A stretch of DNA of 64,000 nt from Amoebophrya sp. A120 (GCA_905178155.1 CAJINV010000004.1:6575409-6639408); one strand, 5' to 3'. Shown: positions 88 to 64,000, counted from the stretch's first letter. Made by a program: numbers and translations. Notes: generated by a model not told the origin, from the letters alone.

Positions 88-3000
88 ATGAGCACCCTTC
101 CACCTGGCCCTCCGGGGCCTCCTGGTGTCGTGGTGTCCGCTTCCCGCGGTCAGCACGCATTGGACCACGGCCTGAGTCGGCGGGACCAAAAGGAGTGCAA
201 GCGGTTCGAACAGGTATCAAATGCAAAAATGATGTCTGGGCCTGGGAGATTCCGAGATTTGTCATGCAGTTTTTCCAAGCTCCCCCACGTCTGGAATGCA
301 GGGCCAGCATCACAGGTTCTGCAGCTCCTTGGTGATGCATATTCTGCATGAGAAATGCCCTCTCAGCATGGCCAGAAGTGGGCACCTTTTGCACTTTATG
401 CATCACAGATCTTTGTAGGATCTGAAACACGCATCACAAGTTTGTCTTCTTCCAGACCCAGACATATTTGCAGTTCATAACAGGAACTGTACGGAAAATT
501 GCAGCAGTTCGAGCTCGCGAAAGAATGGGCGGACCTGTCGAACGTGCTTATGGCGTTGCACCGCGTATTTTCCACGAACGACTCCAGTTCGCAGTACTCA
601 GAGGCGTTTTACCAGCGGTAAGTAAGTAGCACCTCTTTCGAGAAGACGAATGTGAATCTTTGGCCGTCAAATGCGTTTTCAGTATGAGGAAGATAGTGTG
701 TGATGCAAAAATGGTAGAAGTAGAAGATCAAAAATCAATTCACTGTGCATATCAAGATTTAGATATCCCCCTCTCAACATCATCCCAGCCGCCTTGCGAA
801 GAGCCAGATGAAGCGAACTCTGGGCCGGCGGTTAGCGCAGTGTCTGAACCCCCAACTCCCCTCCGGGGTGCACCTCAGCACGCTGAAAATCTACGACTCG
901 ATCTTCAGCCAAATCGGGTCCGACGGACTGGTTTCCGACCTCGGACTGTATTCTTCCGGCCTGTTTCCCCACGTGGCGAACTGCGGAAAGCAGGTCCAGG
1001 CCGCGCTGCTGATTTTACTCGAAAAACATTATTTGCCGTTGAAGTCCCGCTTGGAGCCCTGCATGACGGGTTTGGTGTCCGCGTTGTTACCCTTGTTGGA
1101 AGACGAGGCGAATCCGAACATCGCGCGGGTGTCCAACCTGTTCGCGAAACTGGTAGACGCGGTGTCCGAATCTTCTTTCTGTTCCAACCTGTGGCTGCTG
1201 CTGCTGAAGACGCCGAAAATCCGGTTGCCTGGACTGAAATTGCTGACGAACATCGTGCAGAACTGTTTAAAGAAGAACACCAGTATTCTGGTCGGCTCAA
1301 CATCTACTGCGCCGGGAGCCGCGGGGGCTCAACATACGGGCACAGGAAGTGGAGCAGGATCAGGGGCGTATGCGGGGGGAGGAACTGTCGTGAACACCGC
1401 CACGCGGTCAAGCCGAGACAATGGTTTGCTCCTCGCAGGGAACAACTCTGCGGGCACCAGTACTTTGCTTCTGAAAAGCCCTGGAAGTGGAAGTAAGATG
1501 CGCTCCGCACCACTGCTACATGTTCGCGCAGCAGCAGGCGCAGCGTCGTCTGCAGGTGCTGCACAAATAGCAGAACTAGGAGGGGGTAATAAGGGAGGTG
1601 CCGCACCGCTCTCCCCCCTGCGACCAGCCGAGGCTTCTGTAAGAAAGGCCAACCAAGGGAGTTTGCAGCTTCTAGCTCCTCCCTCCTCCTCAGCCCTGCG
1701 CGCCGGCGCAAGTGGCAGCGCGACGCTTTTACCCGCAGCAGCGACCTCCAGTCCGCAAATACGGGGTCAGGTGCAAAAGGATACAGCCAATCGCGGAAGT
1801 AGTGGAAGCGCATCCGCGAGTCAACAACATACTCTTCTCCCTACGTACGAAAAGACCTTCCCATCTGGCGTCGACGCGCTGCCGAGAGCGAAAATCGATG
1901 CGCTCTTCCCCTTCCACCGTTCCCAACTGGTTCTGCAAACGCTGGAAACCCTGCTGCAGGACTCCCAGCAGCCGCTCGTGCAGCGGGCTGCGTTAGACTT
2001 TATTGCGCAGTTTCTCCCAATGTCTTCCACCGTGTGGCCCCCGGCGACGGGAGGGTCCAGCGGTAGTTCGAGCTCAACATCACACACGACTACAGGTTCA
2101 ACATCTACTACGACGAGTTCGAAAGCGAAACAAGCGGTCCTTCGGACGGTTGTGGCGCTGTTCCAGCAGAACGACGGGAGTTTGAACCGGAGAATTGTCT
2201 TTTACCTGACCAACCGCTACGGTGATTTCGGCGGGATGGACCCCGCCAGCCGAGCGTACTACGATGTGCACGTCCATAAATGTTTAATTCGCGTTTTTAT
2301 GACCGATCTTCTGGTTGCCTGCGGCTGGCCGGGGTCCTCGGTCAACGCCGTGGTGGAGCGGGTTTTGTTGGTGGCTGCGAAGAGGCAAAGGGCTAGTGAA
2401 GATGGAGCTGGTAATGCCTCATCCGGTGCTGGGTCGTCTGCCTCTACCACTTCGCTAGGCCCAGCAGCACAACTCCTGGTGTCCTCTCCATTGGGGGCCC
2501 ACAGCACCCGTACCGGACTGATTTCGCCGTTGCTGGCGACCAAGGGCAGAGTTGACTCGTCTTTAGCGACACCGGCTCGACCACTGCAGCAGAGTCCACC
2601 GGTGGTCGGATTGTCTACCGCACCGGAGGTTCTGCTTTCCCCAGCTTTGTGCGCCGCTGCGAGCAGCAGTACTAGCCGTATTCCAGGCGAGAAGGGTCCA
2701 CAGGCTTTCAACCTCCTCGATGAATTGCACCGGTATCGGGAGCAGGAGGGTCTAGCAGGTGCGTGTTCCACGACGAGCCAAGGTACTAGTACAACCACTT
2801 CTGCAATTGCAACAAGCACGATTAGAAGAGCGCAGCAGGAGCAGCATGATTTGTTCAACCACCACAGCACGACCCAGCTGCACACTTTCTCGCAGCATGC
2901 GAACTGCCTCCGCTCCATTACTTGTTTACTGCAGGAAGTCGAGGAGATCCGCGGCACCGTCGTGCCCGAGCTGAGCATTTTTGTCTTACTATACCTTGAC

Positions 3001-6000
3001 GCGTGCCGAAATTCAACAGTCCGCGACCAAGCCAAGGATTTTTTCGACGGGGCAGACCGGGATTTGGTCCTAGAACAGCTGAAGGAGCTGTGGCAAACCT
3101 CGACGAACCCGGTGTACGCACTGCAGCTCCATCGGGTGTTTCTGGAAGAAGTGTGCGAAGAGGTGGACTTCGGGCGGCATCTGGAGCGGATATTGACCCT
3201 GGCGTTTGCGTCGCTACCACTAATCGCCCCGACGGTAGAGAAGTTGCCGGACTTGTGCGAGGCCCTGAAATTCTGCCAAAATTTGTTTCAACAATTCGAC
3301 AAAATACAGGTCGAAAGTAGACGTCGTGGCAAGAAGATGAACAACCGAGGGAACAATGGGTCAGCTGGGAGAATACAGGAGGAAAACTTTGTTGTCACGG
3401 GTGAAGCTGCGCAAGAAGTTGTAGAGGCGTCAACAGAACGAGAACCAGCGTTTTCCAACTCCGCCACCTCGCCCACAACTACTTCCGAGACCACGACCCA
3501 GACCTTACAGCACGCGGTCAGCCGCCTCCTCGCGCACTTCGAGTTTCTCTTGCGGTCCATGCTGCGGAGCGAGAGCGTCGAGGAGCGGGTGTTGCAGGCC
3601 TACGCGGTTTTGTCTGAAACCGTGGTACAGCTTCACGATCACTTTCCGGCGAGACAGTCGCTGTTGGAAATCATCTGCATTGCCTGCACGGAACAGGGAA
3701 TCAGGAATGATTTAGGCAAGATGTCGAACTACAACTCAAAGAGCCCCCCAACTACAAGAGGAAGTGTGGTAAAGTGGGATAAAGAGGTCTTTTCAGCATC
3801 AGGAACAAGCAAAATAAACACCTCTCAACATCTGCTTGTTCCACCACCCATCGCTTTCAACCGTTCGGAGTTCAATTGCCATCTAGTTCGGACCTTCACG
3901 GGCTTGCTCTCTTGCTTGCCAACGTCCTACACGCTCGGAGCCAGTATTCCAAAAATCGTTTTACACCTGTGGCGGCTGTTGAACACGAGTAGCATTGATT
4001 TGGACGTAACGATCGTGGAACTCTTGATCAACCTGAATAGGGAAGTCATGACGCGGAAGAACTTGACCGAGGAAATCTCCATTGCCGATATCCTGGTTGC
4101 CGATTTCCAAAGTGGGAACCCCATGACCGGCGTGATCCGCTACGCGAGTCTGTGGCGCAGCGGCGTCACGCTGTTGGCCGCACTACACCAGCACGGGACG
4201 AACAATTTTTATCCTACTACAACGGCAGGGCATCTTCAAGGGTCTTCTACTTCTTGCGGAATGTTTGCCCGCACGCTGGATGGGGAAGAGGACGGCTCTA
4301 CTGTCGACATTATAAATCAGCGCATCCACATTCTCGAGTCGTTGGTCGCCGTGGACCAGTTTTCGCAGACGTTTCTCGCAGAAAAGAGGGTTACGAAAGA
4401 CCACGCGGCTTACGAAATGCCACTGGAGATGTTCAACGATGGTTGTTTGAAAAGTATTATGTCGCACGACCGGGTTCAGTTCGTCCCGAGATATGCGAAT
4501 TTTCTTTTCCCGAATGTCACGAAGTTAGTCCTGGGGTGTTTGGACGCCAAGGAGCCGAATTTAAAGCACATCGCGAGGAGCTGGGCCGTGGAGGCGGTTT
4601 CGCACCTTCCCTGTTTGCTGGATCCGTTATTTGAGGACCTTTTGGCCTTTCTCCTTTTGATGGTAACGAAAAATAAGACTGCCTCAAGGTCAACAACACC
4701 TGACACGGCGGAAAGAAGTAGCGACTCTCTGCTTGCACCGGTTGAACTAGCGCCGGACAACGTCGACAGCCAGAATACTCACGAGAATTATTCCCAGCAG
4801 CCTCCCGAATCCGTGCGAAAGCGCGTCGCGTCGCCGAAGCATGTCCTGCTGCGACGGTTCTTTTCCTCCCGCGCGGGGGAGCTGCTCGCCGACGCGACGG
4901 CGAAACAAGCGCCCGGAACGGCGAGGAACGGTGAACAACCCGAAAGAACCTCCGGGACGACGAATACGAGTGAAGCAGAAACATCAGAAGTTGTCCCGAT
5001 GCTGCACCAGCAAACGGGTGATCTTCAATTTCATTCCTCTTCCGAAATGGACCCCCAAGCTGCAGCGGCGAAAATGGGTGCTACAGGCAGCAGGACAACT
5101 GTCCTATCGCCAAGAAGAATGGAGAAAACCGTGGTCGATGGTGTGGCGAAAATGCTGCAGCGGTGCCTTACCATCTTCGAAATATTCACCTCCCTGGTCC
5201 AGGCCGATTACCACTTGATGTTCGACCAGATGCGCCGGCACAGGGTGAGCAAGCACCTCACGGAAGCGTTGCAGGACTACTACTGCCACATCCACTGGTT
5301 GCAGCTGAGCGTCAGCTCGAAAGCCAGCGAAGTTGGAAATTTTTGCCCCCGGGATGCGAGTCACGTGAAGGATTACGCTGATTTCATGTGCCACACGTGT
5401 CTCTGCTTCCTGGAACTCCCGACCAACGGCCCGGAGACGAGGCATCAGCTGGACGACTGGCAGAGCGAATTGGGAAAGAACGTTTTTCTCGCAGCGGCAG
5501 GGATGCTGGGAAAGGAAAGTGTTGGAACAAATGCGGCTGGTGCAGCGGCTGGTGGTAGAACTAGAAGTAGTGCGGATTATAATTTCGTTAGACCTCCAAA
5601 GTCGTCGGAAAAAAGGACGAGCGCTGGCGGAAACGTCTTTGACAGTGCGGCCACAACGACAGCTGAAGAGGAGGTCCAAGACGTGCTAGTAGAAACATCA
5701 CACTTGATAATTCCCGAAACACCAGCTACCGCAGACGGGACCAACAGCAGCTCGACTACAGGCCTGGGAAGAACGTCCACAGAATCGACATTCTCGGGCT
5801 CGACGGAACTTGTTTCTAGCTCAGTGTCGACCATTTCGGCCGGTAGTAAGACTAGTCAGCGGAGCTCCGATAGTCGTGGGGGCTCGAATAAATCCGTGAT
5901 ATGTAGTAATAGCGCCGATCTTCAGGAACAGGACCAAAGGAATTGCTCCGCCCGTATGACGGAGCTGCCAGTTGTCGCAGAGGGGTGTGTCAGCGGTGAG

Positions 6001-9000
6001 GGTCCGTGCGAAGATGAAAAAGGATGTGCTGAAGATACAGCTGCAAGCGAAAAAGGAGCGGTAGGTGGTAAGGCAGACAGTGGAGAAAATCAGGCGCCGA
6101 AGCCGCACGAACATGACGCAGCAGCAGAGACGCAGCCATCGGGGGGGGAAACCGCGCTTGCCTCGGAGCCGTATCAGTCCCCTTTAGCGACACTGCAACC
6201 TAGTCTTGAATCCAAACCCGCACTACATCCCCTCCCAACCGGGCGCAGTACGCAGGTTGTGCTTCCTTCTGAGCAAAAGTTCTTGCGGCTCAAAGTCAAG
6301 CGGCAAGCCGACATTTCCCCGACCGATCAAGATGCAACCACGAGAACAAGTACCAGCAATAAAGTTTTGAATCTTAGTCCCGATCTCTACTTCTCCAGTC
6401 GTATCGAGGGACTTGTGAATGCCATTCGGGCGAGTAGCGGCGAGTTTCTCAAGTCCTTTCTCGGTCCGATCAGCAACCCGGAGAAGGGACATATCACGAG
6501 AAAAAAGTGTTACAGTTACACATTTGTTGGAGTTTCTGCATCACAAATTTTTTCTGTGTGGCAGAGAAAACTTGTAATGCGAAGATCATAAGGGAAAACA
6601 GGAAGGAAACGAGGCTCCCAAGCATTTCCTGCATGAGAAAGGTTGTCTCTGTTGCCGGTCTTGCAACGCAATGTGTAAGCGTAACACTTTTTTCTTGCGA
6701 TAGGACGGGAGATCTGTGCCTGCCTGATTGACCCGCTTTTGCAGATCTATCCTGTGCAAAAGTATCGTACTCGTATAAATGCAATTCTTGCATCACAGGT
6801 CTTTTACTTAAGGTAAATCCGCATTACTTCTCATGCTGAGGAAATTTGTAATGCATTTATACGAGTACGATACTTTTGCAGTTCATAAGATCTTGGACGC
6901 GACGATTCGGGCGCGGGACTACACCATCCAGGTGCATCTGATCGGTATTCTCCGCGTCATGCTGGTGCTGTCCAACCAATTCGCCTCCGGGGGGCAAGAG
7001 ATGGCGGGTAAAAGTTGTACTAGCAGCTTTGCCGGAACTACGAATCAACAAACTAGTGAGATGGCAACTTCTCACGTGATGCGGAAGGTCATTGGCAACA
7101 GCAGCGGTGCTAGTACTACCTCTCCGACCTCGCAACGCGACATGATGCTGGAAAGGACTCCACAAATAACCCCCGCGGTTGGACGACAAGGAGAGCCGCA
7201 GGATCATTTTGGTTTGACCGTATCATCTACTTCGCCCTCCGGCTTGAGCCCCAACAGCTCGGTAGATGGTCGTGAAAACTTCACCACTAATGCCTCGCTC
7301 CTGCAAGAATCGAGGCGGAGGACGACCATGAGCCAGGGTGTTTCTGCGACAATGTCTTCGAACACATCGACTCCAACTGTGCGGGAAAAGGCGACTGTTG
7401 ATTCAACATCGTCGGCAAGGTTGTACCAAGACCGGCATAATTCGAAGAAGCAAACTACTTCACAAAGAAATTATAAGCCCAGAGCACAACGCGGACCACC
7501 AGACCACCAGCGGCAAAAGTTCTCCGGGTCCCTGGCCTGCTACCCACCGCTGCTGCCTTGTTTACTACGGGCAATCGGCCGGTTGCAGCAGCACGCAGGG
7601 ATAAAGAACACGGCTGCTACTTCTAGATCGATTTCAACTACTTCCTCCTCTAGTACCTCTAATAAACTCCTAACAAGTAATAACAATTTCGGCGACGACG
7701 CGATTTTCCAACGGTATTCGTATCAAATGCAAATATGTCTGGGTCTGGAAGAGTCCGAACTTGTGATGCTGCATTTGGATTCCAAAAAAATTTGTATTGC
7801 ATAAGCAGCAAAGGGAATGCAATTTTGGCTATGCAGAGAGGGCATTTGCCATGCGGAATAGGCATCGCGAAGCCCTGAAGAAGTCTGTAATGCTAGGGCA
7901 TGCATCACAGACATCATGGCCCAAGGAAAACGTGCATGACAAGTCTGCTCAGAATGTTCCAGACCCAGACATTTTTGCATTTCATAATTCGCAGGCCAGC
8001 ACGATAGCCCAGTTTGTTGAGTTCATGGTGTTCATCGTGCGCCAGGTTTCTGTATGCATTGCAAAAGTATCGTACTCGTATAAATGCATATACAAATTTC
8101 CTTAGCATGAGAAATAAAATTTGTGATGCGGCTTTAGCCTAAGAACAAGATTTGTAAATGCATGTTTGCAAAAATTACTACGAGTGCGATACTTTTGCAC
8201 AGGATATTCTGCCATGCCAGCGGAGTTCACGCGCGTGGTGGCTGCGGCGGTGAGTAGTTTTTGCCAGGAGATTCAGAAGGTGATTCAGCTTCGGGGGGAC
8301 ACCCAAGCCATGAACGAGCGAAAATTGGAGCAGACCGAGCTTGTCACCAGCCACTTTCTCCGAGGCATTTGCGACATCGTGCACGCCTGCTTGTCGCAGT
8401 GCGACGCGAAACAGGACGCGGATGGGAGTGGGGCGAGTGCAACCGGTTATTCAACATCTAAGGGCACGACCACTAACCGGGCGTCCAATTGGTTTTTCGG
8501 ACTGGTTTTATCGGGAAGCGGGGGGGACAATTCCGCGGAAAGTCAGACGTCGCAACAAGTCCGGACGATGCTGTTTGAAGTAATCCCGGAAATCTTGGCT
8601 GTCACCGTCGCATCGGTCGCAAGCATTTCGGGGCAGAATAGAACTGGAAATAAACAGATGAATTTTCCTCGTGCAGTGGGAGGGAGGACAACTTCTACTG
8701 GCTCCGGATACAACAATTTGAACGAGAGTTTCACATCTTCTGGAGGGGCATTTGGATTTGCAGCAACATCCTCCTCGTCTCTCGCGCTTAGCGGCACGCG
8801 GGACAACATCCGGAGGCAAATGAAGACGATGCTGAATTCGATTTTCGCCCGGTTTCCGCAGCTCTTCGTGGAGTCGGTCTTGCGTATCTGCCGCGACAAG
8901 CAGAGCATTTTACCGTCTCTCCTCGAAACACTGGCGTCCTTGGAGAAAGCCAAGCCGGAGATCGTGTTGCGGTGTGTGGCGGTCGCGTTCGAAAAGGAGC

Positions 9001-12000
9001 TGAGTTGCAGTGTGGGGAGCAACAAGAACAAAACCAGGACTGCTTCTTCGAAAGAAGTTCCCCGGGAAGTCTCATCTGCGAAGAATGATCATGCCGATTC
9101 TAGTATAGAAGCGGCATTCACGACACACAACGAGGATCCTACGACTTTAACGGGACGACCAACCACTTCCAATTTGCGAAATTACCAGCACGGCACTTCG
9201 GGCACTAGAGCAAGTACTACTCAAGATGGCTCTACTAGCTCCCGAGGACCGAACGTCGCGCAAGAGACCACTCCTGTATCAAGCTGTATCCCGCCGAACG
9301 AGGAAAACTTGCTTCTCTATTTCCTGTACAGCTACATGTCGCACTGCAGTCGCGGGCTGTCCTCGCTGGAGATCCTCTGGAAGAGCGTCGCGCGTATCGC
9401 CACCGCCGCGGTGAAGCATTCTAAGCAGCCCGTGACGATGCTATGGGTGCTGTCCTTGATCCAGCTGTGCGATGGGATTACACAGCGGAACCTCGCCGTG
9501 AACGCGAGAAGGAGTAAAACAGGCCGAAATACGACCAGTAATGGAAGTGCGTTGCAGCAACCAATCCTCTACGAGCAGCAAATTTTCGATCAGTTGGACA
9601 TCCGACGGTTCCGGAAAGACGTCACCGCGCTGGTGGTCTTTCTGATCGGATTAGTGGCCATGGAGCAGCCGACAGAACTGCTGAGTGGCAGTACTAGCAG
9701 TAGCTTGAGAAATAAAGAACATACAACTTCCGAGGCGCATCACTTGCTGCACCCGCCACTGCCCCCGCAACTCGAAATGACGCGTGAGTATGATGGTGCG
9801 CAGAAGAAGTTCTGGCACCAAAAAACATTGCAGGCAAGGTCGAGAGTGCAGACACCTGGTGTATCTTCGACTTCTGGAGCTGGGGTGGAAATAAAAGACG
9901 GAAAGGACCCACGGCAGCAGCTGAACAGCAACAATAAGATTCTAAAGACTGCTGGAGCGAGCACGAGCAGTAGCAACCTCGATATGCTGAATAAGCACAA
10001 GTCCGTTTCTTGTTTGCCCTGCGCGGGCCCCGGCGGAACCTTCGGTAGTCGAGGGAATACGAATTTTGATCGTTCCCCAGATGAAGCAGCAACGGTTCAT
10101 CCTGTCAAAACTGCATCATCATCAGGCGCTCATTTGGATCTCAGCTGGATGGTACAGCAGCTACAGCAGAAGCAGACTACTCGAGGACCGCATCAAACCC
10201 TAGTCGCATCTTCTTCCCCCTCCGCACCATCAGCACCCCCACCTCCCCTTCCCGCTCGTGATCAACTCGCGATTTGCAGTTTGCGCTTTCTCATCGTTTT
10301 CCTTTGCGACGTGAACGAATGCAGCTCGACGCAGACGAGATTCGGGACCTTGTTTCTGGACGCTTTACTGTACAGCAGCAAATACTGTAGTTTAGTGCAT
10401 TCCGTCACCCACAACGAGCTCCAATATTTGAAAATTGACAAGGGAACGACCAAGCTTTTTCAAGAAGAGTGGGTCTACCTACTGCTAACCTCGGTCGCGA
10501 ACCTGCCGTTCGATTTGTACCGGGAGAGCATTCTGAAGACGAAGTTGAACAAAACGCTCGTGTCCGCAGTGAACAGCCCGAACTTCTTCGCTTTGAACGT
10601 TTCTACCGCCCGTAGTTTGCGTTGCTGGGCCGAGATCGTGGGCGAATTGCTGTTGTATTTCCACGCGGAACAGTTGGGGTTTCCAACTGGAAGTGGGGCG
10701 GGCGGGACAAGTGGGAGCGTATCAAATGCAAGAATGTCTGGGTCTGGAAGAGTGCATGTTTGTCATGCTTGTCTGGCATGACTCTTAAATCTGTCATGCA
10801 AGTTACCCAAGAGCTCTATTCTTCTGTGATGCAGAAACGCAGTTTGATTGTCATGATGAGTAGGCAACACCTAGAAGCTCAGAAACTTGTCATGCTGAGC
10901 CAGCACCTGTGGCCTCATCATGAGACGCCACCCAGCATCACAAGTTTCCAGACCCAGACACTTTTGCATTTGATAGAGCGAGGAAGAACGCGATGAACAG
11001 TGTTACGCGAGAACAAGAACCTCTCGAGGAGCAGGCGTGGAGGAGAATTGTGGAACAATCGGGGAGTTGCAGCAAAGGGGAACAGCCATGGGATCTAAGC
11101 AAAATTCGTTTTCGTTTTCCTCCGCTTCCCGAGAGCAGCAGCAGCACCTGCAACGAATAGAAGTCTCGTCATTCAACAGAAACAACGGCAACAGCGTCGG
11201 ATTGCTGAATGGAGGTACACCAGGACGCAACATCGGCAACAGGGTTGCAAAGTCACACACGTCTCTGCTCGGCGACATAGAGGACGACTTTGAAGACATT
11301 AGAACTACTCCGGAAAATTTTCTTCTCGAAGATGAATCACCGGAACAAATTCTGTCAGCCCAACATCGGCCGCAAGAAGGACTAATGCAGCAGTTGCACA
11401 GAGTACCCGCAAGGAAAATCAAGAGCCGGCACCAGAAGCAGCGCGCGGAGGTGTTGGCGAACGACGGGCAGGTGCAGTTGTTGTTTCAGATCTGTTGGCC
11501 CTCGAAAACCTCATTGCTGCAGTCCGTCGAGCAGGACCGGGCGCAGCGGTTGCAGTTTCTCCGGCGACTCTGCTTCGTTCTGTACGCGGGGGCGGAGAAC
11601 CAATTTGCGAGTGAGCTACGGGTATCAAATGTAAAAATGTCTGGGTCTGGAAGATTTTTAGATTTGTCATGCATATTTTCCATGACCCATGATGTCTGTG
11701 ATGCATACTGTAGCATCACAGATTTTTAGAGCGCTTTGTGATACCTCTACCGCATGAGAAATGCCCTCTCCTCGTAGCACAAACTGGAGTCCTCTTGCTG
11801 GTCATTTTAGTGGTTGAGGGGTAAATAAGGTCATGCAATACAATTTTTTTCAAAATCCAGAGACAGCATTACAAGTTTAGAATGTTCCAGACCCAGACAT
11901 TTTTGCATTTGATAACGAGACATCATGGACAAACTGTCCGAGTGTCTGCAGACCGTGGCCAATAGCGACTTGCAGTTGGGCGGTGGTGGGGCTACAGGCG

Positions 12001-38717: not shown

Positions 38718-38790
38718 GAAGAGGAGGAGGACGAAGACGATGATGATGACGACGATGATGAGGAGAAGGAGGAGGAAGAAGAGGAGGACG
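38718..38790 (+). repeat. GAN triplet microsatellite
   Basis: Runs of gga/gat/gac/gaa triplets. Confidence 0.7.
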
Positions 38791-45771: not shown

Positions 45772-47414
45772 ATGCCCTCCAGTGCTGCCGCCAGCAGCTC
45801 CGCCTCCGCCGGCGTCAAGCGGCCGCGACGGGACAGCGCGGAGGAGACCGAGGAAATTGCCAAATACGCCTGCGGATCAAATGCAAATATGTCTGGGTCT
45901 GGAAGGTAGCAACTTGTGACGCTGTCTTCGGATTCGAAAAAGATCTGTGTTGCATGACCAGCAAGAGGAGCCGATTTTTTCCTACGCGGAGGGGGGATGT
46001 GTCATGCGGAGTAGGCATCGAGAAGCCCTGCTCAAAAATTCTGTGACGCTAGGGCATGCATCACAGACATTATGGCTCATGCAAAACGTGCATGACATTG
46101 ACAAGTCTCCGAAACTTCCAGACCCAGACACTTTTGCAGTTGATACTGCGCCGTGTGCATGGAGGTGGTCACCGACTGCCACTCGTCCACCTGTTGCGGG
46201 GCTGTGTTCTGCGGGGAGTGCAAAACCGTATTGGAGCAGGAGGACCGAAATTTGTGGCCGGCGGAGGGTCGCCGACCCTGCCCGCACTGTCGAAAGAAGG
46301 CACCGTGCTACGTGAAAAACCTGGCGTTTCATATTCGCGAGCAAATATCACAGCTCCCGCAATCGGCCAAGGCAATACTTCTCATGCAAGACAATTTGAC
46401 GCGCTCGTTCTCTTCACTCTATGTTTTGAGCCTTTATTTTCTAGTAGTCGTCCACCATGGGAATAGTTCATTGCGCCCTATAGCAAATTTTCCCGGCTAG
46501 AAGTACCGCACAATTAGCCAAGAAGTCATCGTGACTAATCTGGAATTGGATGTTTTTGAAGGATCGTAGAACCGCGGAGAAATTGAAATATGTATAATTA
46601 CTCAGAAATCCAACTCCAAGTTGGGGAAGTCAAACTCAAAGTGCTGTAGTATGAATGATGTGGGGGCGTCCTTTTTTTATTCAGGATACTGAAGCGCCTC
46701 GCAAACGAAGTCGAGGTGGTGTGCCCAGAGGAGCGGTGCGGCGTCAGGTAAAGCATATATGAGAATTACTACGGTATTTTTGTTGCCGCGCAAGGAAGTA
46801 AAACTAGAACTGCGCGTTCTGTTGCGCAACTCTAGGGACCACACCCTGGTCTTGGTGAGAAAGGCAGCGTAGCGTAGCTGGAGAATTTATCTTTATCTCC
46901 CGCACAAATCTTCAACACCGCCATGCCCATCATGGTTCTTTCCATTTCGAAAAAGATAAGCATATGATAAAACAAGAACCAAAACCCTCGTTGCAGGTCG
47001 AAAGTTGGTGAGCGCCACTGCGATTGGTGTCCGTGGGCAACGACCGAGTGTTCGCTGTCTTGGATGGGCTGTAGGTGGACAGGTCCGCGGAAGAACCTGA
47101 AGCAGCACATGGAGGACTGCCACGCTCCGCGGTGCCGACAGCGACCCTGCTGCCCAGGGAAGCTGCAACAGCTTCCACAGAACGTGTGCGAGACCGTGGG
47201 CACCGGCTCTTTCTGCGACACCTGCGGCTGCGCGCCGCGGAAGGACAGCGGCCACACTTGGTACGGCTGCGACGTCGACGACTGCGACTACCTCGAGTGC
47301 TCCAGCTGTCTCATCCACCGCCCGCTGCGCACGATGCTGCTTGGCGTGGATGGGCTCGTCCGGGATAAGGGGGACCTACGGCCGCGGTTTGAAGACGGCG
47401 CGGGCGCTTTTTGA
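45772..47414 (+). CDS. RING-finger / zinc-finger protein, multi-exon
   Basis: Spliced CAVCMEVVTDCHSSTCCGAVFCGEC...CPHC; downstream GCRWTGPRKNLKQHMEDC and a Cys-rich module. Confidence 0.75.
45875..46145. mobile_element. Introner, family A, inside the first CxxC of the RING
   Basis: Left end gatcaaatgc (first base T>G); DR ctgcg/ctgcg; removal gives KYACAVCMEV. Confidence 0.92.
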
Positions 47415-52501: not shown

Positions 52502-54898
52502 ATGCCCTTCGTTTCTCCAGACTACGTGCCTGATCCGCTCTTGGTGGCTGGGAATACGCTCGTACCATCCCCCCCGCTTGGTACAAAGCCGCCAACCTCG
52601 AGAACACGAACTTCTACTGCTTGCACACGACCGCCCACGACCCAGCAGCAGCTGCACAGACAACAGAAAAACGCGCCCCACAGCGGTTTTCTGGACAGAA
52701 CTGTGTTGAGACAGCGCATGCTGCGGAGTTTGGAAGCGCACAGAGCCCACCTTTCAGACCTGGAGCTCTTCTGCATCTCTGTGAGCCTAGGCTTGTGGGA
52801 GATGACGAAGATCATTTCTTTTGGAGATGAAGATGACTACGAAAAATTTTTTACCCCGAACAAGAAGAAGAAGAACATTACCAGCGGCAGTGGGGGAGTA
52901 CAAGAGCACCGGCTGGAAGACCCTGATGAGATCGCCGAGCTGTGGAACTACCGCGAACATGGGAGCAAGACCGCATGTGGACATATTTTGAACGGACGAC
53001 CTACTACTTCCGAATATGATGAAGTACACCAGGTGCAGGCGCCGGAACAAACGGAGAACAAGAGAAAAAAACGGAAAAAAATCACGAGACAAGTGGTCCT
53101 GGAGTCGATCCGCACCGGGTTGTATGAAATGTAAAAATGTCTGGGTCTGGAAGAATGCGCGATTTGTCATGCAGCTTTTCCATGACCCGTGAGGTCTGGA
53201 ATGCAGGACCTAGCATGACAGATTCTGCGTGATCTCTCTCATGCCTCTCCTGCATGAGAAACTCCCTCCCGACTTGGTCAAAACTGGACGACTTTTGGTA
53301 ATCATGCAACACAGATTTTTGCATGCTTCAGATTTAGCATGACAAGTCCCATTCTTCCAGACCCAGACATTTTTACATTTGATAGGTTGCGCAAAATCCC
53401 GATCCAGGTGGCTTGCGACGTGGTCGATATGCAGGAGGTATCAAATGTAAAAATGTCTGGGTCTGGAAGATTCTGAGACTTGTCATGCATGTTTTGCATG
53501 ACCCAGGACGTCCGTAATGCGCGACCTAGCATCACAGATTTCTAGAGGGCTTCCTGATGCCTACTCCGCATGACAAACGCCCTCCCCGCGTAGCACAAAC
53601 TAGAATCCTCTTGGTGGTCATGCAATACAGAATTTCTTAGAGTCCGAAGTTAGCATCACAAGTTCCATCCTCCCAGACCCAGACACTTTTGCATTTGAGA
53701 GGAGGGAGACTACCGTGAATACTGCCAAAACACGATCTTGTACGAGGACACACAGCTCCTGTGTATGAACAAGCCTTCGGGCAAGCGGGTGACGCCCTTC
53801 CACCGACTAGCGTCCACCGACAGCTGTCAGAACGAGATGCTGGCGTACGTGACAAGGGAGCTCTCTTGCTGGAAGAGGACGACAGGGGATGATGTGTCGA
53901 AAATCATGGAGCCGAGCTGCACAACGGGAGTTGTAGAATCGCAACACCGAGAAGAAGCTGTGCTGGGTAACAACAAGACCACGACAGTTCTACCCACCGT
54001 CCCCAGTCCGCTGCACCGGCTGGACGTGCACACATCGGGGGTCCTGCTGTTTGCGAAGCACGGCGAAGCGGCCAAGCAATTTGGGAACCAGGAGTTTTGG
54101 GCCGGACGCACGAGAAAGCGGTACTTGGCGATTGTCAGAATTGTGTCTGAGGAGCTGCTGCTGGTGGAGAAAAAGGAAAAGCACTTCTTCGTGAAGATTT
54201 CCGAGCCCCTGGATGGGAAGGCAGCGGTAACGGGAGTGGAGGTGCTGGACCAAGTAGTTTTTCCTCGTCGGACAGGAAACAATAGAGAACATGACCAAGA
54301 GAATGACAACAAGAACGACGCAATACAAGAGGAACCAGGCTCTTTCTACAACTACGCCCTGGTGTGCTGCGAGCTACTCCAAGGCGGGCGCACGCACCAA
54401 ATCCGCAGACACTGCGCGCGGCTGGGTATGCCTTTACTGCATGATCGCGAGTACCAAGCGGGCTCGACGGAGAAAGTTGGTTGTTCCACCGGCGTCCAGG
54501 ATCATGTCGTCGCCGGGTTGAGGACTAGCGAGACCCCCTTGGAACAGCAGGATCAAAAACAAGAAGTAGCAGCTCATTCTGGAAGTAGCAATGTGGAGAA
54601 TTATCCGGACCGCGAAGCCGAGAGCGATAGTTTTCCGAGCGTAGCTGGCCAAACTTCCAAGCAGTTTTTCTTGCACGCATGGAAACTGGATCTCGGGACG
54701 ACTAGAACTTTTCCTGCATCGGGTGACAACAGTTCCTCGGAAAATCAAAATGATCCGTTGACATCTTCACCGGGTGACCACTTGCTTGTTGACAACGAGA
54801 ACGACCCCCGATTTCCGATATCCATTGAAGCGCCCTTGCCAAGCCGGTTCCAACAAGAGTTAGAGGCGCTGGGACTCAAGAACCCCATTTCAACTTGA
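52502..54898 (+). CDS. RluA/RPUSD-family pseudouridine synthase; 2 introners; start uncertain
   Basis: ILYEDTQLLCMNKPSG, catalytic HRLDVHTSG, GRTHQIRRH, FFLHAW. Confidence 0.88.
53123..53384. mobile_element. Introner, family A, 262-bp subfamily
   Basis: DR ggttg/ggttg; very similar to 12493-12754 and 29893-30154. Confidence 0.94.
53439..53700. mobile_element. Introner, family A
   Basis: DR ggagg/ggagg; removal gives DMQEGDYREY. Confidence 0.92.
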
Positions 54899-55424: not shown

Positions 55425-58400
55425 ATGATGCGAAAAGATCGGTTTCGTTCCCGGCGGTGGAGCGCCCGCGGCGCGTGGATCATGACGGCCCGCAGCGCGT
55501 GGATCATGGCCTGTATTTGTGTCGCTTTATTTCAGCAGCACGAGCCATCTTTCCTGTGTGCTGTCAACGCTTTACTTCGCGGCCGTGATAGTGCACCGCC
55601 TCCGATAGATACCGCTCCATCGGATGACGCGGCCGTAAAAGCGTCCCTAGAGGACGACGGGCGCATAGAGCTCATACAACGCACGGGCCAGCATCGCGCC
55701 GCCAGTGGTTCTCCGCCCACATCATCATCATCATCATCTCCAGAACGATCGAACGCCACACGGCAGGAACTTTTGTCTCTAGGTGCAGCCGATAGAAATG
55801 ATGTTCCAACTATCCTGAGTAAAAACGTACCCACACCAGAGTCAAGATGAGGACTTTGCAACACAAACCTGGGAGTTTTAGGAGTCACACATGACAAGTT
55901 GCACTATGCAGTGTAGTGCAGGTTAGCAAGTGCAGCCGCATCACAGATTCATCTGCTCATCCTGTTCACAGCATCACAAATTCCAAAACACAATTGGAAA
56001 TGGCTCTCATGGGGATGCGCATTACAAGTCTTCCTGTCTTTACAAATCTGCATTACAACTCTGGTGTGGGTACGTTGTTACTCAGGATAGTTCTTGATCT
56101 GGCTGGTTTCGCGATCGACGGCAGCCGGGACGCCACCGGCGGCGATGGCCACGCGCCGTCGCCGGAAGGGAAGAAGATGCTCTGCCTGCTGCGGAAGCAC
56201 GTGGAGTTTGGGCCCCACGCGAAGTGGGTCAAAACGCCCGCCTCGCTGCGGCACTACGACGAGGGGCAGACGAAGGAGCTTGTGCCGCCGCTTACCGACA
56301 AGACGTGCGCGGTCGTGTCGAACTCCGGGGCACTGCTGAATCACGAGTACGGCGCCGAGATTGACCAGCACGACTTTGTATCGAATGCAAATATGTAGTC
56401 TGGGACTGGGTCTGGAAGAGTGGAAGATTTGTCATGCACGTTTTCCATGATCGATGAGGTCTGTAATGCATGGTCTAGCATCACAGATTTTGAGAGGGCT
56501 TCCTGATGCCGCTTCCGCATGAGAAATGCCCTCCCCGCGTAGCACAGACTGGACTCTTCTTGCAGGGCATGCAATACAGTTTTTTTTCGAATCCGAAGAC
56601 AGCATCACAAGTTACAACCTTCCAGACCCAGAGAGTTTTGCATTTGATACTTTGTCGTGCGCATGAACAGCGCGCCGACCGACGGGTGGGAAAAGCACGT
56701 GGGGGGAAAACAGGACGTGTATGTCGGCATCAAGGACGTTCTGCAGGAGATTTGCGCGGGACCGGAGGCGCTGCAACAAGCGCACTACCTGCGCAGGGGG
56801 TCCGTCGCCTGGGAGTGGGACCGCTTGCAGGCCACGCGAAAACTGCGGCTGGCGCAGCAAAAGCCGGAGGTCCTTCTGCGCCCTGATGCTGATGCTGAAA
56901 ATAACGGCGACAGCAAAGATGTTGGGGCAGATGAGCAGGAGGGGAACAAGATTCTTGCAACAAACACAACGACCTCCAAGTCCGAGGAAAAAGATGGTGC
57001 GGAGGTCGGGCAAGGGCAGCACGAGAAAATAATTCTGACCGAGCATGGTCTTCCACGACCGTCATCTTCAACCGTCGCTCCAACTGGTTCGTCCACCCCA
57101 CGTATCCTGAGTAAAAACGTACCCACACCAGAGTCAAGATGGGGATTTTGCAACACAAACCTAGGAGTTTTGTGAGTCACGCATCACAAGTTGCAGTCCG
57201 TAGTGTAGTGCAGGTTCGCAAGGCCAGCTGCATCAGAAATCCATCTGCTCATCCTGTTTACAGCATTACAAATTCCAAAAGACGATTGGAAATGGCTCTC
57301 ATGTGGATGCGCATTACAGGTCTTCCTGTCTTTGCAAATCTGCATTACAACTCTGGTGTGGGTACCTTTTTACTCAGGATACCACGACCTCCTTCGTCAC
57401 AGTTTTACACCCACGACGCCGAAGAAGACTTTTCTGATGATATCAAAATGAAAAATTTCCCCTCCCCATATTGAAAAGCTATGTTTTCGAAAATTTGTGT
57501 TGCTGATTTGAGGTCACAAATCACACGTGTCTTGCAAGACGAAAAGGGCAGAAGCTTCGGCCCCATTATGGAAGCGATTTGTCATGCTGTCGGGCTTAAA
57601 GGGGAGTCGTTTGCCATGCTGAACAACTAGACCCATACACCCCTGCCTAGCCTGGGGATCTGGCCGCAGTGCCTTCCTGCAATACAAAGCTGATTCGTGT
57701 ACACAAATCCAGCATCAGAAATTTCGTTTTGATATGGGGAGGGGGGATTTTTCGTTGCAATAGATGAGAAGGGTCACAGTACACCTACAAGCAAGGCAAG
57801 GGACGACGTGGAAGGGGGTGTTTTATTTCCTTGGTCGATTTCTTCCCCGTGGTCGTCGGCGATGGAGGTTGTGCAACAAGGAAGTAGAGCTGCGGAGGGT
57901 AAAAATGTTCCTCCATCGCGCACCTCTCCACAACCTGCGGCAACCACGACCAGCGTCCTCTCGTCCTCACATCAGGACTACAACAAGCGCGTACAGGCAG
58001 TTTTGCAGGAAACAAGCAAAGACAATTATGGGAAAACAAGTAAGGCAATTTACGTCGAAATGTTGGATCCAAAGGAAACAGAACAGCTCGTGCCCCGATG
58101 CGCCAGGAACAACATCACCCTGAAGGCCTTTGCGAATCTCGGGCATGGCGTCACCCGAAACATAGATCCCGAGCTTTCTGCGTTGCTCGCCGCCATGTAT
58201 CCAGCTGCTCCTGTACCGGAAGGAGGGACGCGAGGTGGTCGTGGGTTTACTAGTGCAACAGGTGGAGGTACTACAACTACAAATAGTACAACAGCAACAG
58301 TGGCGTTGTCTACAACTGGGACAACAACTTCGATGAATAAAACAATCAAACAGCCTGCTTCAACATCACTTTCTCCTGCTGCGGGTGGTCTGCGACTCCC

Positions 58401-60718
58401 GGGACTACCGAGCCTCGCAACCACTACGGGGTTCCGTGCGGTGGTCCTGATGGCGGCACATTGCAAGCATGTGGACTTGTACGAAATGGCGCCGAGCCGC
58501 GCCGCGGTGAACAGAAATAAATACCAGTACTTCAAGAACCGGTGTTGCGGCGCCAAGGACCTGGAGCGGATCGAGGCCGCTGTCAAGTTGTACGCCGGAG
58601 ATGATCATGATACTCGTCATATCAAAATGAAAAATCCCCCCACCCCATACTCAAACTAGAAATTTGTGATGCAGATTTGTGGTCACAAATCAGCTTTGTC
58701 ATGCTAGAAGGGAAAAGATGTGGACTGTAGTGCTGGTTGGCGTGGGAATAAACCTTTGCGTCTTCAACATAACAAAAAACAACTAAAAGTGGGAAACAGC
58801 ATGACAAATTGCCTGCAACTGAGGCCACAGCTGCGTCTCTTGGCCTTCTAGCATTACAAGTCGATTTGTGTACTCAAATACAGCATCACAGGTTTCGTTT
58901 TCGATATGGGGAGGGGGGATTTCTCCTTTTGATACGTCACGACCGGGGGGCTTCGATGGGAGATGAAGCCTCACGTCCACCAGTTCTTCAGTCAGCGATA
59001 GTACAACAACTCGTATCCTGAGTAAAAACGTACCCACACCAGAGTTGTCATGCAAACCTGCATGCCAAAAAGGTTTGTCATGCGGAGCGCCATGAGAGGC
59101 ATTGTCTAGTCGTGTTTTGGAATTTGTGATGCTACAATCAGCATGATATACTAGATCTGTGATGCTGCTGAACTACCTAAACAGGATTACACTACGAAGA
59201 CGAACTTGTCATGCCAAACGACCAAAGCTGGCTGATTTGTCTAGCAGATTTGCCATCTTGACTCTGGTGTGGGTACGTTTTTACTCAGGATAACTCGTGA
59301 GTCAACATCAAGGGAGGACCCAAGCGGAGGAAAGAACAGGCAGGAATAAAGCAGGAGAGAATTATAAAGCGCGCTTCTTCAAACGCAGCGGGCAGACCGG
59401 TATGATGACCGCCAGTGACGAAAGCTTCTTCGCAGCCGGCACTACGAAGGACAAGTTCTTGTACGAAGATGGAACGAAAGCTAAAGATGATCTAGATCTT
59501 CTTGGTCAGCGAACAACCAACACAGCAAGTGCAAGAGTACTACCGGGAAAAGAAGAAGACTTTTCCCTTCGAGAGATCGCCGCTCGTCGAGAACAAGAAG
59601 GAGCAGAAGCAGATGAAGAGGACGGTGCTGATATCAAAAGGAAAAATCCCCCCTCCCCATATCAAAAGGAAGTTTCTGATGCAGGATTTGCGTACACAAA
59701 TAAGATTTGTCTTGCTGGAGAGGAATGCAGCCCCGTACTAAGCCTAAGTAGAGAGGTTCTGGCCTAGGCGTCTAGCATGAGAAACTTCCGTGCTGTAGGC
59801 CCATCAGCATCACAAACCGCCTGCACAATGCTGCGGAGCTTGTGGAGTTGCCTTCTTGCAAGACAGACGGGATTTGAGGTCTCAAATCAGCAACGCAAAT
59901 TTCCGGAAACATACCTCTTCGATATGGGGAGGGGGTATTTTTCCTCTTAATAGCTGACACTGCCATGTCAGGTGACTCGCGGTCCACTCTTTCCGACCTC
60001 TCTCGCTCTACAGAAGCGGAGACCTACAAAATGAAGATGCAGAGGACGTCAGCAGGAAAAGAAAAGAACAACAGCGACACAGACACTGAGCACGGACGGC
60101 CGGTGCAACCCCGCGGCACGGTAGAAATCGTAGCCGGCGCAGGACAGGAGCAGGAGCACGACGATGTTGAAGCGTTTCATCTCGAACAGATGGATACGCA
60201 GGACCTGGAACAACATCAACACCGAGCGGGCCGTACCGTGACGGGGCAGCTGCAGTTGGACAGCTACAAGGAACCGGAGCCCTGGGGGACGGGGGCTTTG
60301 CAAAACGATTGGCACTCGCTTATGGCGTAGTTCTCAAACGTTACATTCATCTCAACTGTTACATGGATTTTATTTGTAATGCAAGAACAGCAACAGTGAA
60401 TGAAATGTGAAAGTGGCAAGATTGCAGCTTTCGCATTACAGATTTTCCACAGATTGTGATGCTGTTTAGCCCTTCGAAAATTTGGCATGTTAAGCACACC
60501 TTGATCAAGTGGAGGGTGATGGCAATTTTGCATGACAATTCCGTGTAACAGTTGAGAACGTAGTATCAGTTGAGAATGCCATATCGCTGTACCGCGCCGA
60601 GCACGACTTCTACCGGCGCACCGCCATCACACCGGCGGCCGAGTCCTTCGAAACGGGAAAGGTGCGACTGCCCGGGCTGGCGAGTCTGGACTGTGAGGAG
60701 GAAGAAGACGCGAATTGA
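55425..60718 (+). CDS. GT29 sialyltransferase-like protein (ST6Gal-like C-terminus); 8 introners
   Basis: N-terminal hydrophobic anchor; sialylmotif L CAVVSNSG...IDQHDFVVRMNSAP...VG; motif S TTGFRAVVLMAAHCKHVDLY; VS-like WHSLYRAEH; end GKVRLPGLASLDC. Confidence 0.85.
55811..56089. mobile_element. Introner, family E (279 bp), no recognisable DR
   Basis: TIR tatcctgagtaaaaacgtacccacaccagagt; flanks ccaac/gttct. Confidence 0.9.
56379..56649. mobile_element. Introner, family A, inside sialylmotif L
   Basis: DR ctttg/ctttg; removal gives HDFVVRMNSAP. Confidence 0.93.
57103..57381. mobile_element. Introner, family E (279 bp)
   Basis: TIR tatcctgagtaaaaa(c/g)gtacccacaccagagt; DR ccacg/ccacg. Confidence 0.93.
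57441..57762. mobile_element. Introner, family H (opposite orientation to 50495 and 59632)
   Basis: Ends tatcaaaatgaaaaatttcccctccccata / tatggggaggggggatttttcgttgcaata; DR gatga/gatga. Confidence 0.91.
58620..58934. mobile_element. Introner, family H
   Basis: Ends tatcaaaatgaaaaatcccccc / ggggggatttctccttttgata; DR cgtca/cgtca. Confidence 0.92.
59014..59292. mobile_element. Introner, family E (279 bp, opposite orientation to 55811 and 57103)
   Basis: TIR of about 32 bp, tatcctgagtaaaaacgtacccacaccagagt; DR actcg/actcg. Confidence 0.93.
59632..59952. mobile_element. Introner, family H
   Basis: DR gctga/gctga; removal gives EDGADTAMSGD. Confidence 0.92.
60321..60583. mobile_element. Introner, family I
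   Basis: Ends tatggc...ttctcaa...tctcaactgttaca / tgtaacagttgaga...ttgagaatgccata; DR tcgct/tcgct; removal gives DWHSLYRAEHDF. Confidence 0.88.
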
Positions 60719-62100
60719 TGAAAAATTCAAGGATACTAACTTCTGGGGCGCCGCAGCTACACCCGGGGTTCTTGCACGACTACAATAGCAGGAACAAGAT
60801 CGAGGAGGGACTTTGATTGTGTCTTTCCTCACAGGATGATGTTGCGGTGGAGCAGGAGCGTTCGCGCCTTGATGCGGTGGTGGCTGATGAGGTGCATAAT
60901 CTTGTTGTTTTCCATGATGCTGATCCGGCTTTCCCGACGAAGACCCGTGCTTCCCACTGTAAGAGCCATCCTTCTTTCCACCTTTCCCGCCATGCTCCTT
61001 CGCAGTGCCACCACTCGTCCCTTTGTGCGCCTCCTGCACCGCTGCAGGCGCGCGGTAGGTTCCACCTGCGCCTTTCGGGGCTTGCTGTTGGTGCACACCA
61101 GTGCTCTTTCCACCCTTTTCCGCTGGGGGCCCCGGGGGTGGAGGAGCTCCTTTTGGCACGATAAGTTGGGCGGACTGGTGGTGCACGGGCGGCTGGTGTG
61201 GCGGAGGGTGTTGATGATGATGTCCTCCAGCTGGTGCGCCCTTCACGGCCGAGAACTGGCCATACGGCCCGCTTCCCTTTGGCGGAGGGCCTCCGGACGG
61301 CGCTGCTGGCCCCTTAATCGGCCCGTAGCCCGTGTCTTTCATGCGAAAGGTGCCGCCCATGTTGACGGATTGGGTCGTTGGTTTCCCACCCGGGGGATGG
61401 TGTTGGTGGTTTTTGTCGTTACTTGGTGGATGCTGATGTCCTCCATGTCCTCCGGTTGGGCCGAACCCGAACTGGTTGTTCTTGTTTAAATAAACCGTGC
61501 CAGACGGTGATTTCCCGATACTATACCCTTTGCTCTCGGGAACAGGAGGCGGTCCGTTCTTGTGACCACCATATTTACCTTTTCCACCATCGTGATACAC
61601 AGTACCGTTCTTGCTGTTGACACCAGGTTTGCCTCCTTTGTAGCTGCCTTTGTTTTTGTCATAGTAGGAGCTGTTCTTGTCGCCTTTGTGATGTGGTTGG
61701 ACAACTTGATGTCCTCCACCATCTTGATGATTATTTTCCCCTCCATCCACCCCTGGTGGCAGTCCCTTCCTGTTTTTCTTCTTCGTTTTCTTCTTTTTCC
61801 TCCTCCACATGGAGGAAAAAGAAGAACTTCCTCGTCCTGCTGGTTGTTTTCCTCGACCACAATCTCGTCACCACCGAAGTACGGCTCCTGTGATAAATAT
61901 GTCGGGTTGTAATTTGTGATTGAAGATGCGCTACCTATAGTTTTATTTTTCTCTTGAAAATATGCATGACAAACACAAACTACAGCACCGCACGTGTATT
62001 GAAAACATGAATGACAAACGGCAAATTTTTTCCATACCTCGCTTTCCTCCAAGTCGCTCGGGAGATCATCCGGCGGGTTGTTCTGCTCGATCACAGACAT
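60566..62100 (-). CDS. G/H/P/K/Q-rich low-complexity protein on the minus strand; ends and exon structure uncertain
   Basis: 414-aa ORF 60566-61810 plus an acidic upstream segment with a probable intron. The ORF 3' tail overlaps the sialyltransferase end and may not be real. Confidence 0.5.
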
Positions 62101-63817: not shown

Positions 63818-64000
63818 TATGGAAGCGTCAGGTTTGAAATCGCCAAAGTTGAAATAATTTGTGATGCATAAAATGCATAGCGCGAAATACGTGTGTTGCA
63901 GAGCAGGCAAGTGAGGCCGATTGTAAGCCTGTTTGGGGTTAGAGCTCGAGCTGCTAAAGTAGCATGAGAAAATCAGTCATCTTTGCCTAAACAGCATGAC
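63818..64000. mobile_element. Introner, family F, truncated by the window end
   Basis: tatggaagcgtcaggtttgaaatcgccaaagttgaaataatttgtgatgc resembles the ends of 37031-37335. Confidence 0.75.

Follow-up and report, generated by a model that had tools for sequence, protein, structure and literature searches.

A short conserved motif shared by nearly all introner families in a stretch of Amoebophrya sp. A120 DNA, with pairs 31-33 bp apart, is predicted to be a protein site on double-stranded DNA

The introners of Amoebophrya A120 are repetitive, non-canonical introns, about 240 nt long, that carry inverted and direct repeats, and they are classed as non-autonomous DNA transposons with terminal inverted repeats (TIRs) of unknown superfamily (PMC7789003, PMC12130899; these papers, like the others cited below, were covered in part). 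Their ends consist of TAT, seven variable bases and at least three As, and 29,850 introners were counted in A120; no transposase was reported, mobilisation and splicing were left open, and U1 small nuclear RNA (snRNA) was undetected in these genomes (PMC7789003). Integrase-like open reading frames (ORFs) have been reported in A120 family 38 (PMC12130899). In Emigrant, a miniature inverted-repeat transposable element (MITE), subterminal sites are bound cooperatively by Lemi1 proteins, and subterminal sites are also present in rice mariner-like elements, Sleeping Beauty, pogo, CACTA and hAT (PMC1636448). In Tn10/IS10, IHF acts as a host helper (PMC3159471). In this study, we analysed a stretch of 64,000 nt from Amoebophrya sp. 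A120 (GCA_905178155.1 CAJINV010000004.1:6575409-6639408; hereafter the window, with positions counted from its first letter), in which an initial annotation had noticed one short motif, GCATBACA or its reverse complement TGTVATGC, in elements of every family. The results show that the motif is a sequence-specific, selected, strand-blind site of fixed spacing that is confined to one transposon class.

The window is gene-dense eukaryotic DNA with Dopey_N, ankyrin, TPR, pseudouridine synthase and glycosyltransferase 29 domains, and its genes are interrupted by 37 short elements that start with TAT and finish with ATA, mostly with a 5-bp duplication on either side. Judged from their TAT-N7-AAA ends, these elements are introners of the published A120 type, which they also resemble in the direct repeat at their borders and in their non-canonical removal from mRNA. 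They are MITE-like as well, being short, non-coding and multicopy, with TIRs and a target-site duplication (TSD) of fixed length. The family letters A-J and the element, intron and exon classes used here are those of our own annotation. When the complete elements were excised together with 5 bp, all 36 junctions were open for at least 60 nt on both sides, compared with 28-30 of 36 at other offsets; the median open length was 411 nt vs 123-141 nt, and frames of up to 3,692 codons were restored. Among the matches listed, contig joints from sequencing runs X3-X6, which are guessed to be RNA and none of which is recorded as RNA, skip at least 16 window elements: at least 12 among the 15 joints listed, a set from one study with two samples, and 4 more. 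Three of these 16 (36352..36615, 36682..36964 and 37031..37335) are also joined across in run X1, which makes the RNA proof weaker for them. The element at 55811..56089 has no TSD, and its joint (55809>56094) therefore fixes the splice register for the class: the cut lies 1 nt before TAT and 4 nt after ATA, with CT..TC ends (55810-56093).

A second set of elements was obtained by scanning metagenome contigs with the family A end, which gave 141 loci, all on JACKZZ01 contigs, merged into 128 stretches (512 kb) that are biased toward family A by the way they were fetched. This set contains 366 elements, against 2 in a reversed-sequence control, and 356 of the 366 are 100-349 bp long; its detectors were seeded on TAT starts and ATA ends, so that the count of elements with these ends is not unbiased. 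The family A end pattern gave no match in viral contigs, and tblastx of the window genes against the fetched loci revealed no orthologue. The sense-strand base before TAT is G in 22 of 36 window elements vs 68 of 257 second-set elements, indicating that the window favours GT donors and the second set does not. With no common gene and a different base before TAT, the second set is probably another strain, and its independence from the window is not proven.

TGTVATGC occurs 115 times in the window vs 6.31 expected, the shuffle maximum is 16, and none of 100 shuffles reaches 115. The 37 elements (10,348 bp) hold 111 of the 115 strict sites, while element-wise shuffles give a mean of 2.5 and a maximum of 9 (n=200), and the remaining 4 sites are in 21 canonical introns (3,762 bp; 0.6 expected). 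No strict site was found in 34,774 bp of exon, 11,118 bp of intergenic DNA or 3,998 bp of unclassified DNA. The recurrence of the motif across families and its scarcity in exons and intergenic DNA, both noticed in the initial annotation, are thus real, and the example sites given there were all found (260+, 431-, 37073+, 37286-, 48723-, 60375+ and 60530-). A strict copy is present in 35 of the 37 window elements, and the two others (49366-49624 and 50495-50820) carry degenerate copies only. The flanks of the 111 sites also hold information, with A at position -2 in 87 and a pyrimidine at -1 in 100 and at 0 in 105. The full site is RAYYTGTVATGC, with about 227 profile matches, or about six per element. 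In the second set, 1571 of 1677 strict sites fall in element-like DNA (11.7 per kb vs 0.28 per kb elsewhere), and T occurs 26 times at the V position vs 318, 899 and 460 for the other bases. Strict copies are found in 27 of 31 TIR classes and profile matches in 30 of 31. An Rfam scan of the window gave no match.

The families had been described as having unrelated TIRs, and this was not borne out: the ends agree with TAT-N7-AAA in 29 of 35 families, and what differs from family to family is only the inner TIR, at about positions 16-30. Because of this shared TIR architecture, the families probably share ancestry. In 368 TIR pairs collected with no TSD filter, the TSD is exactly 5 bp in 282, 5 bp with at most one mismatch in 326, and 6 bp in none. 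The motif is a short sequence at set positions inside the ends, as is characteristic of subterminal repeats, and in 32 of 37 family ends a distance of 33-38 or 41-45 bp separates the outermost inward site from the end. A copy 30-55 nt inside an end, with an inverted copy near the other end, had been noted as frequent; an inward-facing copy in this range is present for at least one end in 273 of 392 elements, whereas both ends have one in only 144 of 392. Family C sites face outward at both ends, and those of families B and E face inward at one end and outward at the other. The inner TIR is unrelated to the motif, and a weak outward copy can be recognised at TIR positions 4-11 (mean score -4.4 vs -13.1 for background; more than 3 bits in 15% vs 0.6%).

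The suggestion that the motif is a common cis-signal under selection is supported by its rates of change. The site changes 2-4 times less than its flanks in 8 families, and the V base is neutral. In the trees of all 8 families, the seven fixed positions vary less than the remaining interior columns and to about the same small extent as the TIRs, and the relative rates by position are 0.32, 0.58, 0.56, 0.99 (V), 0.47, 0.42, 0.20 and 0.31 (48 sites), so that the fixed bases evolve at 0.20-0.58 of the interior rate. Circularity was lowered by defining sites on a neighbour copy and counting private changes, and the private-change ratio is 0.31-0.42 across all four divergence bins. Under trinucleotide-context matching, 367 changes were counted vs 925 expected; the CpG rate is 0.109 vs 0.094, indicating that CpG decay is minor. 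The motif therefore passes both the comparison with neighbouring bases and the enrichment test that had been put forward with it.

A feature absent from the initial annotation is the pairing of same-strand copies 31-33 bp apart, which is seen in 10 of the 11 largest families, family I being the exception. With one element taken per family, there are 23.2 pairs at 31-33 bp vs 3.7 in the null (maximum 10), and when families A and E, in which the pairing was first spotted, are left out, there are still 19.6 vs 3.1. Altogether, 315 of 392 elements have such a pair. The upstream copy is the stronger one in 30 of 38 pairs, and the identity of the spacers between families is 0.29 vs 0.26 expected from composition. 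A distance of 31.5 bp corresponds to three turns of B-DNA. Among orphan sites, 16 of 106 have a partner at 31-33 bp vs 1-4 at control offsets. An apparent 16-bp lattice is better explained by two 31-33 bp pairs that interleave on opposite strands.

The motif shows no preference for a strand of the transcript. The strand was assigned with a codon model, which was correct for all 28 window elements above threshold and oriented 257 of 366 others. In 293 oriented elements, the two sense-strand motif orientations occur 835 and 805 times; 22 elements are without one orientation and 17 without the other. Both insertion orientations are found in every family with more than two oriented copies (binomial p 0.23-1.0). 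In family E, the strict copies are all on one strand, and the elements are skipped either way round, even within one gene (57103-57381 minus, 59014-59292 plus). The strand specificity to the transcript that characterises intronic splicing enhancers is thus not found. Nor do inverted partners covary at the V position, where matches number 40 vs 62.9 expected in family A (n=139) and 41 vs 64.1 (137), 26 vs 25.5 (66) and 16 vs 13.1 (30) in the other sets.

Predicted TIR-less GT-AG introns hold 13 strict sites in 22.1 kb vs 2.6 in shuffles. This amounts to 0.59 per kb vs 11.7 per kb in elements, or about 1/20 of the density, and the motif is therefore not a general intron signal. These TIR-less rates are rough, as the canonical-intron gene model over-predicts (14 exact of 82 predicted, with 20 true) and the filter giving 127 introns was not validated on the window. 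The residual copies in canonical introns may be decayed elements.

The absence of transcription bias, splicing in either orientation, the lack of RNA covariation and the fixed spacing with unrelated spacers point to a protein site on double-stranded DNA. The explanation that we favour, with some reserve, is that the motif is a conserved site common to nearly all TAT...ATA introner families, that it is predicted to be bound by a protein as double-stranded DNA, and that it serves transposition. A role in transposition is the most likely one, with a precedent in the subterminal transposase sites of MITEs. The reader would be a DNA-binding protein whose two units or domains would sit on the same face of the helix at a distance of three turns, mostly in contact with a strong copy and a weaker same-strand copy 31-33 bp downstream. 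Once bound, it would help to assemble the transposition complex on an element of 150-320 bp, and the non-coding elements would need this putative protein to transpose. One candidate is a cut-and-paste transposase common to the families, which would bind here through a second DNA-binding domain; the other is a DNA-bending host protein that would assist transposases specific to each family. As the inner TIRs vary by family and the site does not, the host helper is about as likely as the shared transposase domain. For splicing, the decisive features would be the terminal stem of inverted repeats and the TAT/ATA register, both of which are the same in either orientation, rather than the motif.

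Several observations weigh against a site for transposition on double-stranded DNA. Searches of Pfam, the atlas and the protein representatives revealed no transposase or binding protein, and none is reported for A120 in the parts of PMC7789003 covered. Private changes are depleted on long terminal branches too (0.34 above 12% divergence), which fits selection after insertion, and a test based on TSD age gives an excess ratio of 0.59 with intervals that include both 0.35 and 1. Only 19 of 35 families have a pair in half of their copies, family I has none, and the families, being related, do not count as independent trials. Any period from 8 to 12 is compatible with the end-distance peaks, the family-level link of the TIR tip score to the partner site has p=0.065, and, in contrast to Emigrant, the motif does not seem to be simply a repeated part of the TIR. 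In addition, TIR-less canonical introns contain the motif at 5-7 times the shuffled level, the ATGC core is in excess in the canonical introns of the window (59 vs 37.7) and not in those of the second set, and motif bases are predicted to be paired in RNA more than other interior bases (0.64-0.85 vs 0.57-0.64).

No autonomous partner with a transposase was found among TIR pairs of up to 6 kb in the 512 kb, which is a very small fraction of a genome. One family A element in the second set (L075:476-2934) is flanked by an exact 5-bp duplication, and its left end is interrupted by 2.2 kb of inserted DNA that holds a 415-codon ORF on the minus strand. The ORF was not accepted as a demonstrated transposase: it belongs to no Pfam family, has no atlas match and finds only itself among the protein representatives.

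The main rival is a host role on DNA, because selection during transposition and selection after insertion are not separated by the TSD-age test. A host DNA-binding or chromatin protein could read the paired site after insertion, to the benefit of the host or for the survival of the element, for example as a mark for co-transcriptional excision, in setting the chromatin phase or as a shield from silencing. We consider this unlikely, albeit a serious contender. It explains the strand-blindness and the helical spacing equally well, as well as the single motif across family-specific inner TIRs, the constraint kept on long terminal branches, and the residual copies, some of them paired, in canonical introns and at orphan sites (16 of 106). 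Against it, exons and intergenic DNA lack the motif, and its density in TIR-less introns is about 20 times lower, a residue that decayed elements could explain; the sites also keep to fixed distances from the ends of the transposon, and the tip of the TIR looks like a weak copy. One specific form is that the paired site is a DNA-encoded excision mark, at which a host protein on chromatin would direct the transcription and splicing machinery in either orientation; this seems distinctly improbable, but if true it would account for the splicing of tens of thousands of introns with arbitrary borders in a genome where U1 snRNA was not found.

An RNA-level signal, in which a splicing factor or an snRNA-like RNA binds the motif in pre-mRNA for the removal of non-canonical introns, is slightly less probable still. 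All of the elements are introns, U1 snRNA is undetected in the parts of the genome account covered (PMC7789003), and there is some enrichment in canonical introns. Such a reader is at odds with the near-equal use of the two motif orientations and insertion of each family both ways round, with the 39 of 293 elements that are without one orientation, and with the skipping of family E both ways; moreover, a single-stranded reader must accept the sequence and its reverse complement. Of the two kinds of factor put forward in the initial annotation, one that acts on DNA (a transposase or a helper) fits, and a splicing factor or snRNA acting on RNA fits poorly, also in view of the about 20-fold lower density in TIR-less canonical introns. 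It is very improbable that base-pairing between inverted copies, which would lengthen the hairpin that brings the splice ends together, is the sole reason for which the copies are retained. The elements do fold strongly (z -9.3 and -11.2) and their motif bases pair more than other interior bases, but the idea is largely refuted by the missing covariation at V, which in family A is below expectation; T is excluded at V, which pairing would not require, and family E has no inverted partners (predicted motif-to-motif pairing 0.02) and yet keeps its sites (ratio about 0.4). Common ancestry of a 32-bp repeat or a mutation bias such as CpG decay creating the word, with no function, could appeal to the shared TIR architecture and to the TG/CA-rich motif, but it is refuted, unless the alignments are biased, by a core 2.5 times more conserved than context-matched bases with V neutral, by the small CpG difference and by unrelated spacers, which leaves it a scarcely credible account.

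The features of the window that carry the motif are listed below, with strict sites given by position and strand, the distance between paired sites in brackets, and the runs whose contigs skip the element.

215..479, introner of family A: 260+, 307-, 400-, 431- (pair 31 apart)
618..762 (+), probable ordinary intron with uncertain ends: one strict site, 699+
6492..6702, introner of family B: 6538-, 6573+
6748..6887, introner of family C: 6790-, 6847+, both outward
7721..7986, introner of family A: 7762+, 7886+, 7902-, 7934- (pair 32)
8053..8206, introner of family C: 8122+
10720..10975, introner of family A: 10761+, 10792+, 10825+ (31 and 33 apart), 10888+, 10935-
11623..11914, introner of family A: 11665+, 11697+ (32), 11713-, 11866-
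12493..12754, introner of family A: 12535+, 12583-, 12707-; RNA hairpin z -11.2
27211..27450, introner of family A: 27363+, 27410-
28176..28436, introner of family A: 28217+, 28265-, 28389-
28827..28981 (+), canonical GT-AG intron: strict site 28843+
29032..29278, introner of family A: 29074+, 29122-, 29199-, 29230- (31)
29893..30154, introner of family A: 29983-, 30107-
30194..30343, introner of family C: 30236-, 30267- (31), 30302+
30729..31282, long introner D: 30814+, 30830-, 30863- (33), 30880-; middle nearly without the motif
35080..35348, decayed introner of family A: 35121+, 35251+, 35267-
36352..36615, introner of family A: 36393+, 36479+, 36518+, 36566-; skipped with one TSD copy left, X3/X6 (also X1)
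36682..36964, introner of family E: strict sites all + (36717, 36796, 36829, 36878); skipped, X3/X6 (also X1)
37031..37335, introner of family F: 37073+, 37205-, 37239+, 37286-; skipped, X3/X6 (also X1)
37427..38205, introner of family A with a motif-free insert of about 500 bp: 37460+, 37986+, 38092-, 38156-; skipped, X3/X6
40324..40617 (+), canonical intron of a short gene that we take to encode ribosomal protein S21: strict site 40348-, weaker partner 32 bp on
43522..43764, divergent introner J: 43553+
45875..46145, introner of family A: 46000+, 46058-, 46090- (32)
48553..48763, introner of family G: 48619-, 48669+, 48723-; skipped, X3-X6
49366..49624, introner of family A: degenerate sites only, two pairs 31 apart; skipped, X3-X6
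49712..49984, introner of family E: strict sites all - (49790, 49914, 49945); skipped, X3-X6
50495..50820, introner of family H: degenerate sites only, pairs 33 and 32 apart; skipped, X3-X6
50878..51148, introner of family A: 50961-, 51057-, 51088- (31); skipped, X3-X6
53123..53384, introner of family A: 53165+, 53213-, 53337-
53439..53700, introner of family A: 53481+, 53529-, 53568-, 53653-
55811..56089, introner of family E, no TSD: strict sites all - (55938, 55971, 56019, 56050)
56379..56649, introner of family A: 56430+, 56462+ (32), 56478-, 56602-; skipped, X3-X6
57103..57381, introner of family E: strict sites all - (57181, 57263, 57311, 57342); skipped, X3-X6; RNA hairpin z -9.3
57441..57762, introner of family H: 57580+; skipped, X3-X6
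58620..58934, introner like family H: 58665+, 58697+ (32), 58799-, 58851-, 58883- (32); skipped, X3-X5
59014..59292, introner of family E: strict sites all + (59046, 59076, 59125, 59158, 59207), opposite to both of its neighbours within this gene; skipped, X3-X6
59632..59952, introner of family H: 59807-
60321..60583, introner of family I: 60375+, 60433-, 60455+, 60530-, the family without 31-33 bp pairs; skipped, X3-X6
61888..62037 (-), probable GT-AG intron in a gene on the minus strand: strict site 61964
63819..64000, introner of family F, cut by the window end: 63860+

Two of these introners, 37427-38205 and 30729-31282, contain inserts of 350-500 bp that are nearly free of the motif, and 37427-38205 is still skipped whole (X3/X6). 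Run X1 has an even coverage of about 26x over intergenic DNA and looks genomic; its short contigs join across one canonical intron and three introners in 35999-37338, at single-copy depth and with sides of 25-27 nt. These joins may come from an intron-less retrocopy or paralogue of part of the gene at 35999-37338. In RNA run X9, no exon of the window is matched and only element ends are, and about 500 reads match the end of the element of family F (37031-37137); 270 of the X9 reads carry an extra tail behind 37137, presumably a template-switch adaptor. An RNA from another locus would then have its 5' end some 110 nt within an F-type element, as an internal start or a splicing intermediate.

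Canonical introns of the window often start with GTAT, which can be compared with the G plus TAT of an introner, and have AG|GT at both borders (for example at 28556, 32787, 36001, 38371, 40324 and 50151); some of them may be old introners that have gained canonical ends. Contigs of X3/X4 skip 1511 bases with GT..AG ends (window 60889-62401) over a minus-strand reading frame, and the skip may stem from a 3' extension that contains a long intron, or from overlapping antisense transcripts. None of the window genes between 13457 and 27211 has an introner. This region includes two similar zinc-finger genes with matching intron positions (14316-15886 and 21203-23065), which by eye we take to be RING/TRAF-like and which stand on either side of a long intron-less gene.

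In their genomes, introners account for a large part of all introns, and a spacing rule and a conserved site that hold across families suggest that one factor or one conserved domain serves them all. A defined bait of double-stranded DNA can be built from the paired site, with V-to-T changes and spacers altered by +/-5 vs +/-10 bp as ready controls. The results also take the motif off the list of likely RNA splice signals and indicate the terminal stem and the TAT/ATA register instead. In addition, the motif can be used to find decayed and unclassified introners.

HMGB1 is a host helper with Sleeping Beauty, and the site described here is like those of host architectural helpers in that a putative DNA-bending host protein would act just inside the ends and be common to different elements; it is unlike the sites of IHF and HMGB1, which are single or not sequence-specific, in forming dense paired arrays. 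At the level of letters, part of the motif resembles the Sox-Oct composite element of animals and a palindromic octamer common in apicomplexan non-coding DNA, both of which are leads only; the octamer is present once in the window and in none of the elements. In the parts examined of the published accounts of A120 introners, the ends alone are described, and an internal motif, its conservation and the 31-33 bp pairing are absent; the direct repeats are given there as 3-5 nt, whereas the duplication here is 5 bp (PMC7789003, PMC12130899). The supplement text of PMC7789003 contains no ATGC or GCAT string, with figures S19-S25, which could show the motif, outside this scope. The literature on introners, Amoebophrya and subterminal motifs, together with whole-word spellings of the motif, gave no description of it (theses and subscription papers were outside the scope), and of five such spellings no paper contains two. 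The element class is thus known, and the sharing across families and the three-turn pairing are not described in the literature examined, which was covered in part. The TA..TA termini are like those of IS3EU/GingerRoot, an integrase-like DDE group that fits the ORFs of A120 family 38, but the TSD in that group is usually 6 bp, in contrast to the 5 bp seen here (PMC10045372). The closest likeness in arrangement is to Emigrant and Lemi1, with short repeated internal sites, direct and inverted, at set distances from the ends of non-autonomous elements; what sets the introners apart from it is that one motif is used across different inner TIRs and throughout the interior, in three-turn pairs, for a protein that is so far putative (PMC1636448).

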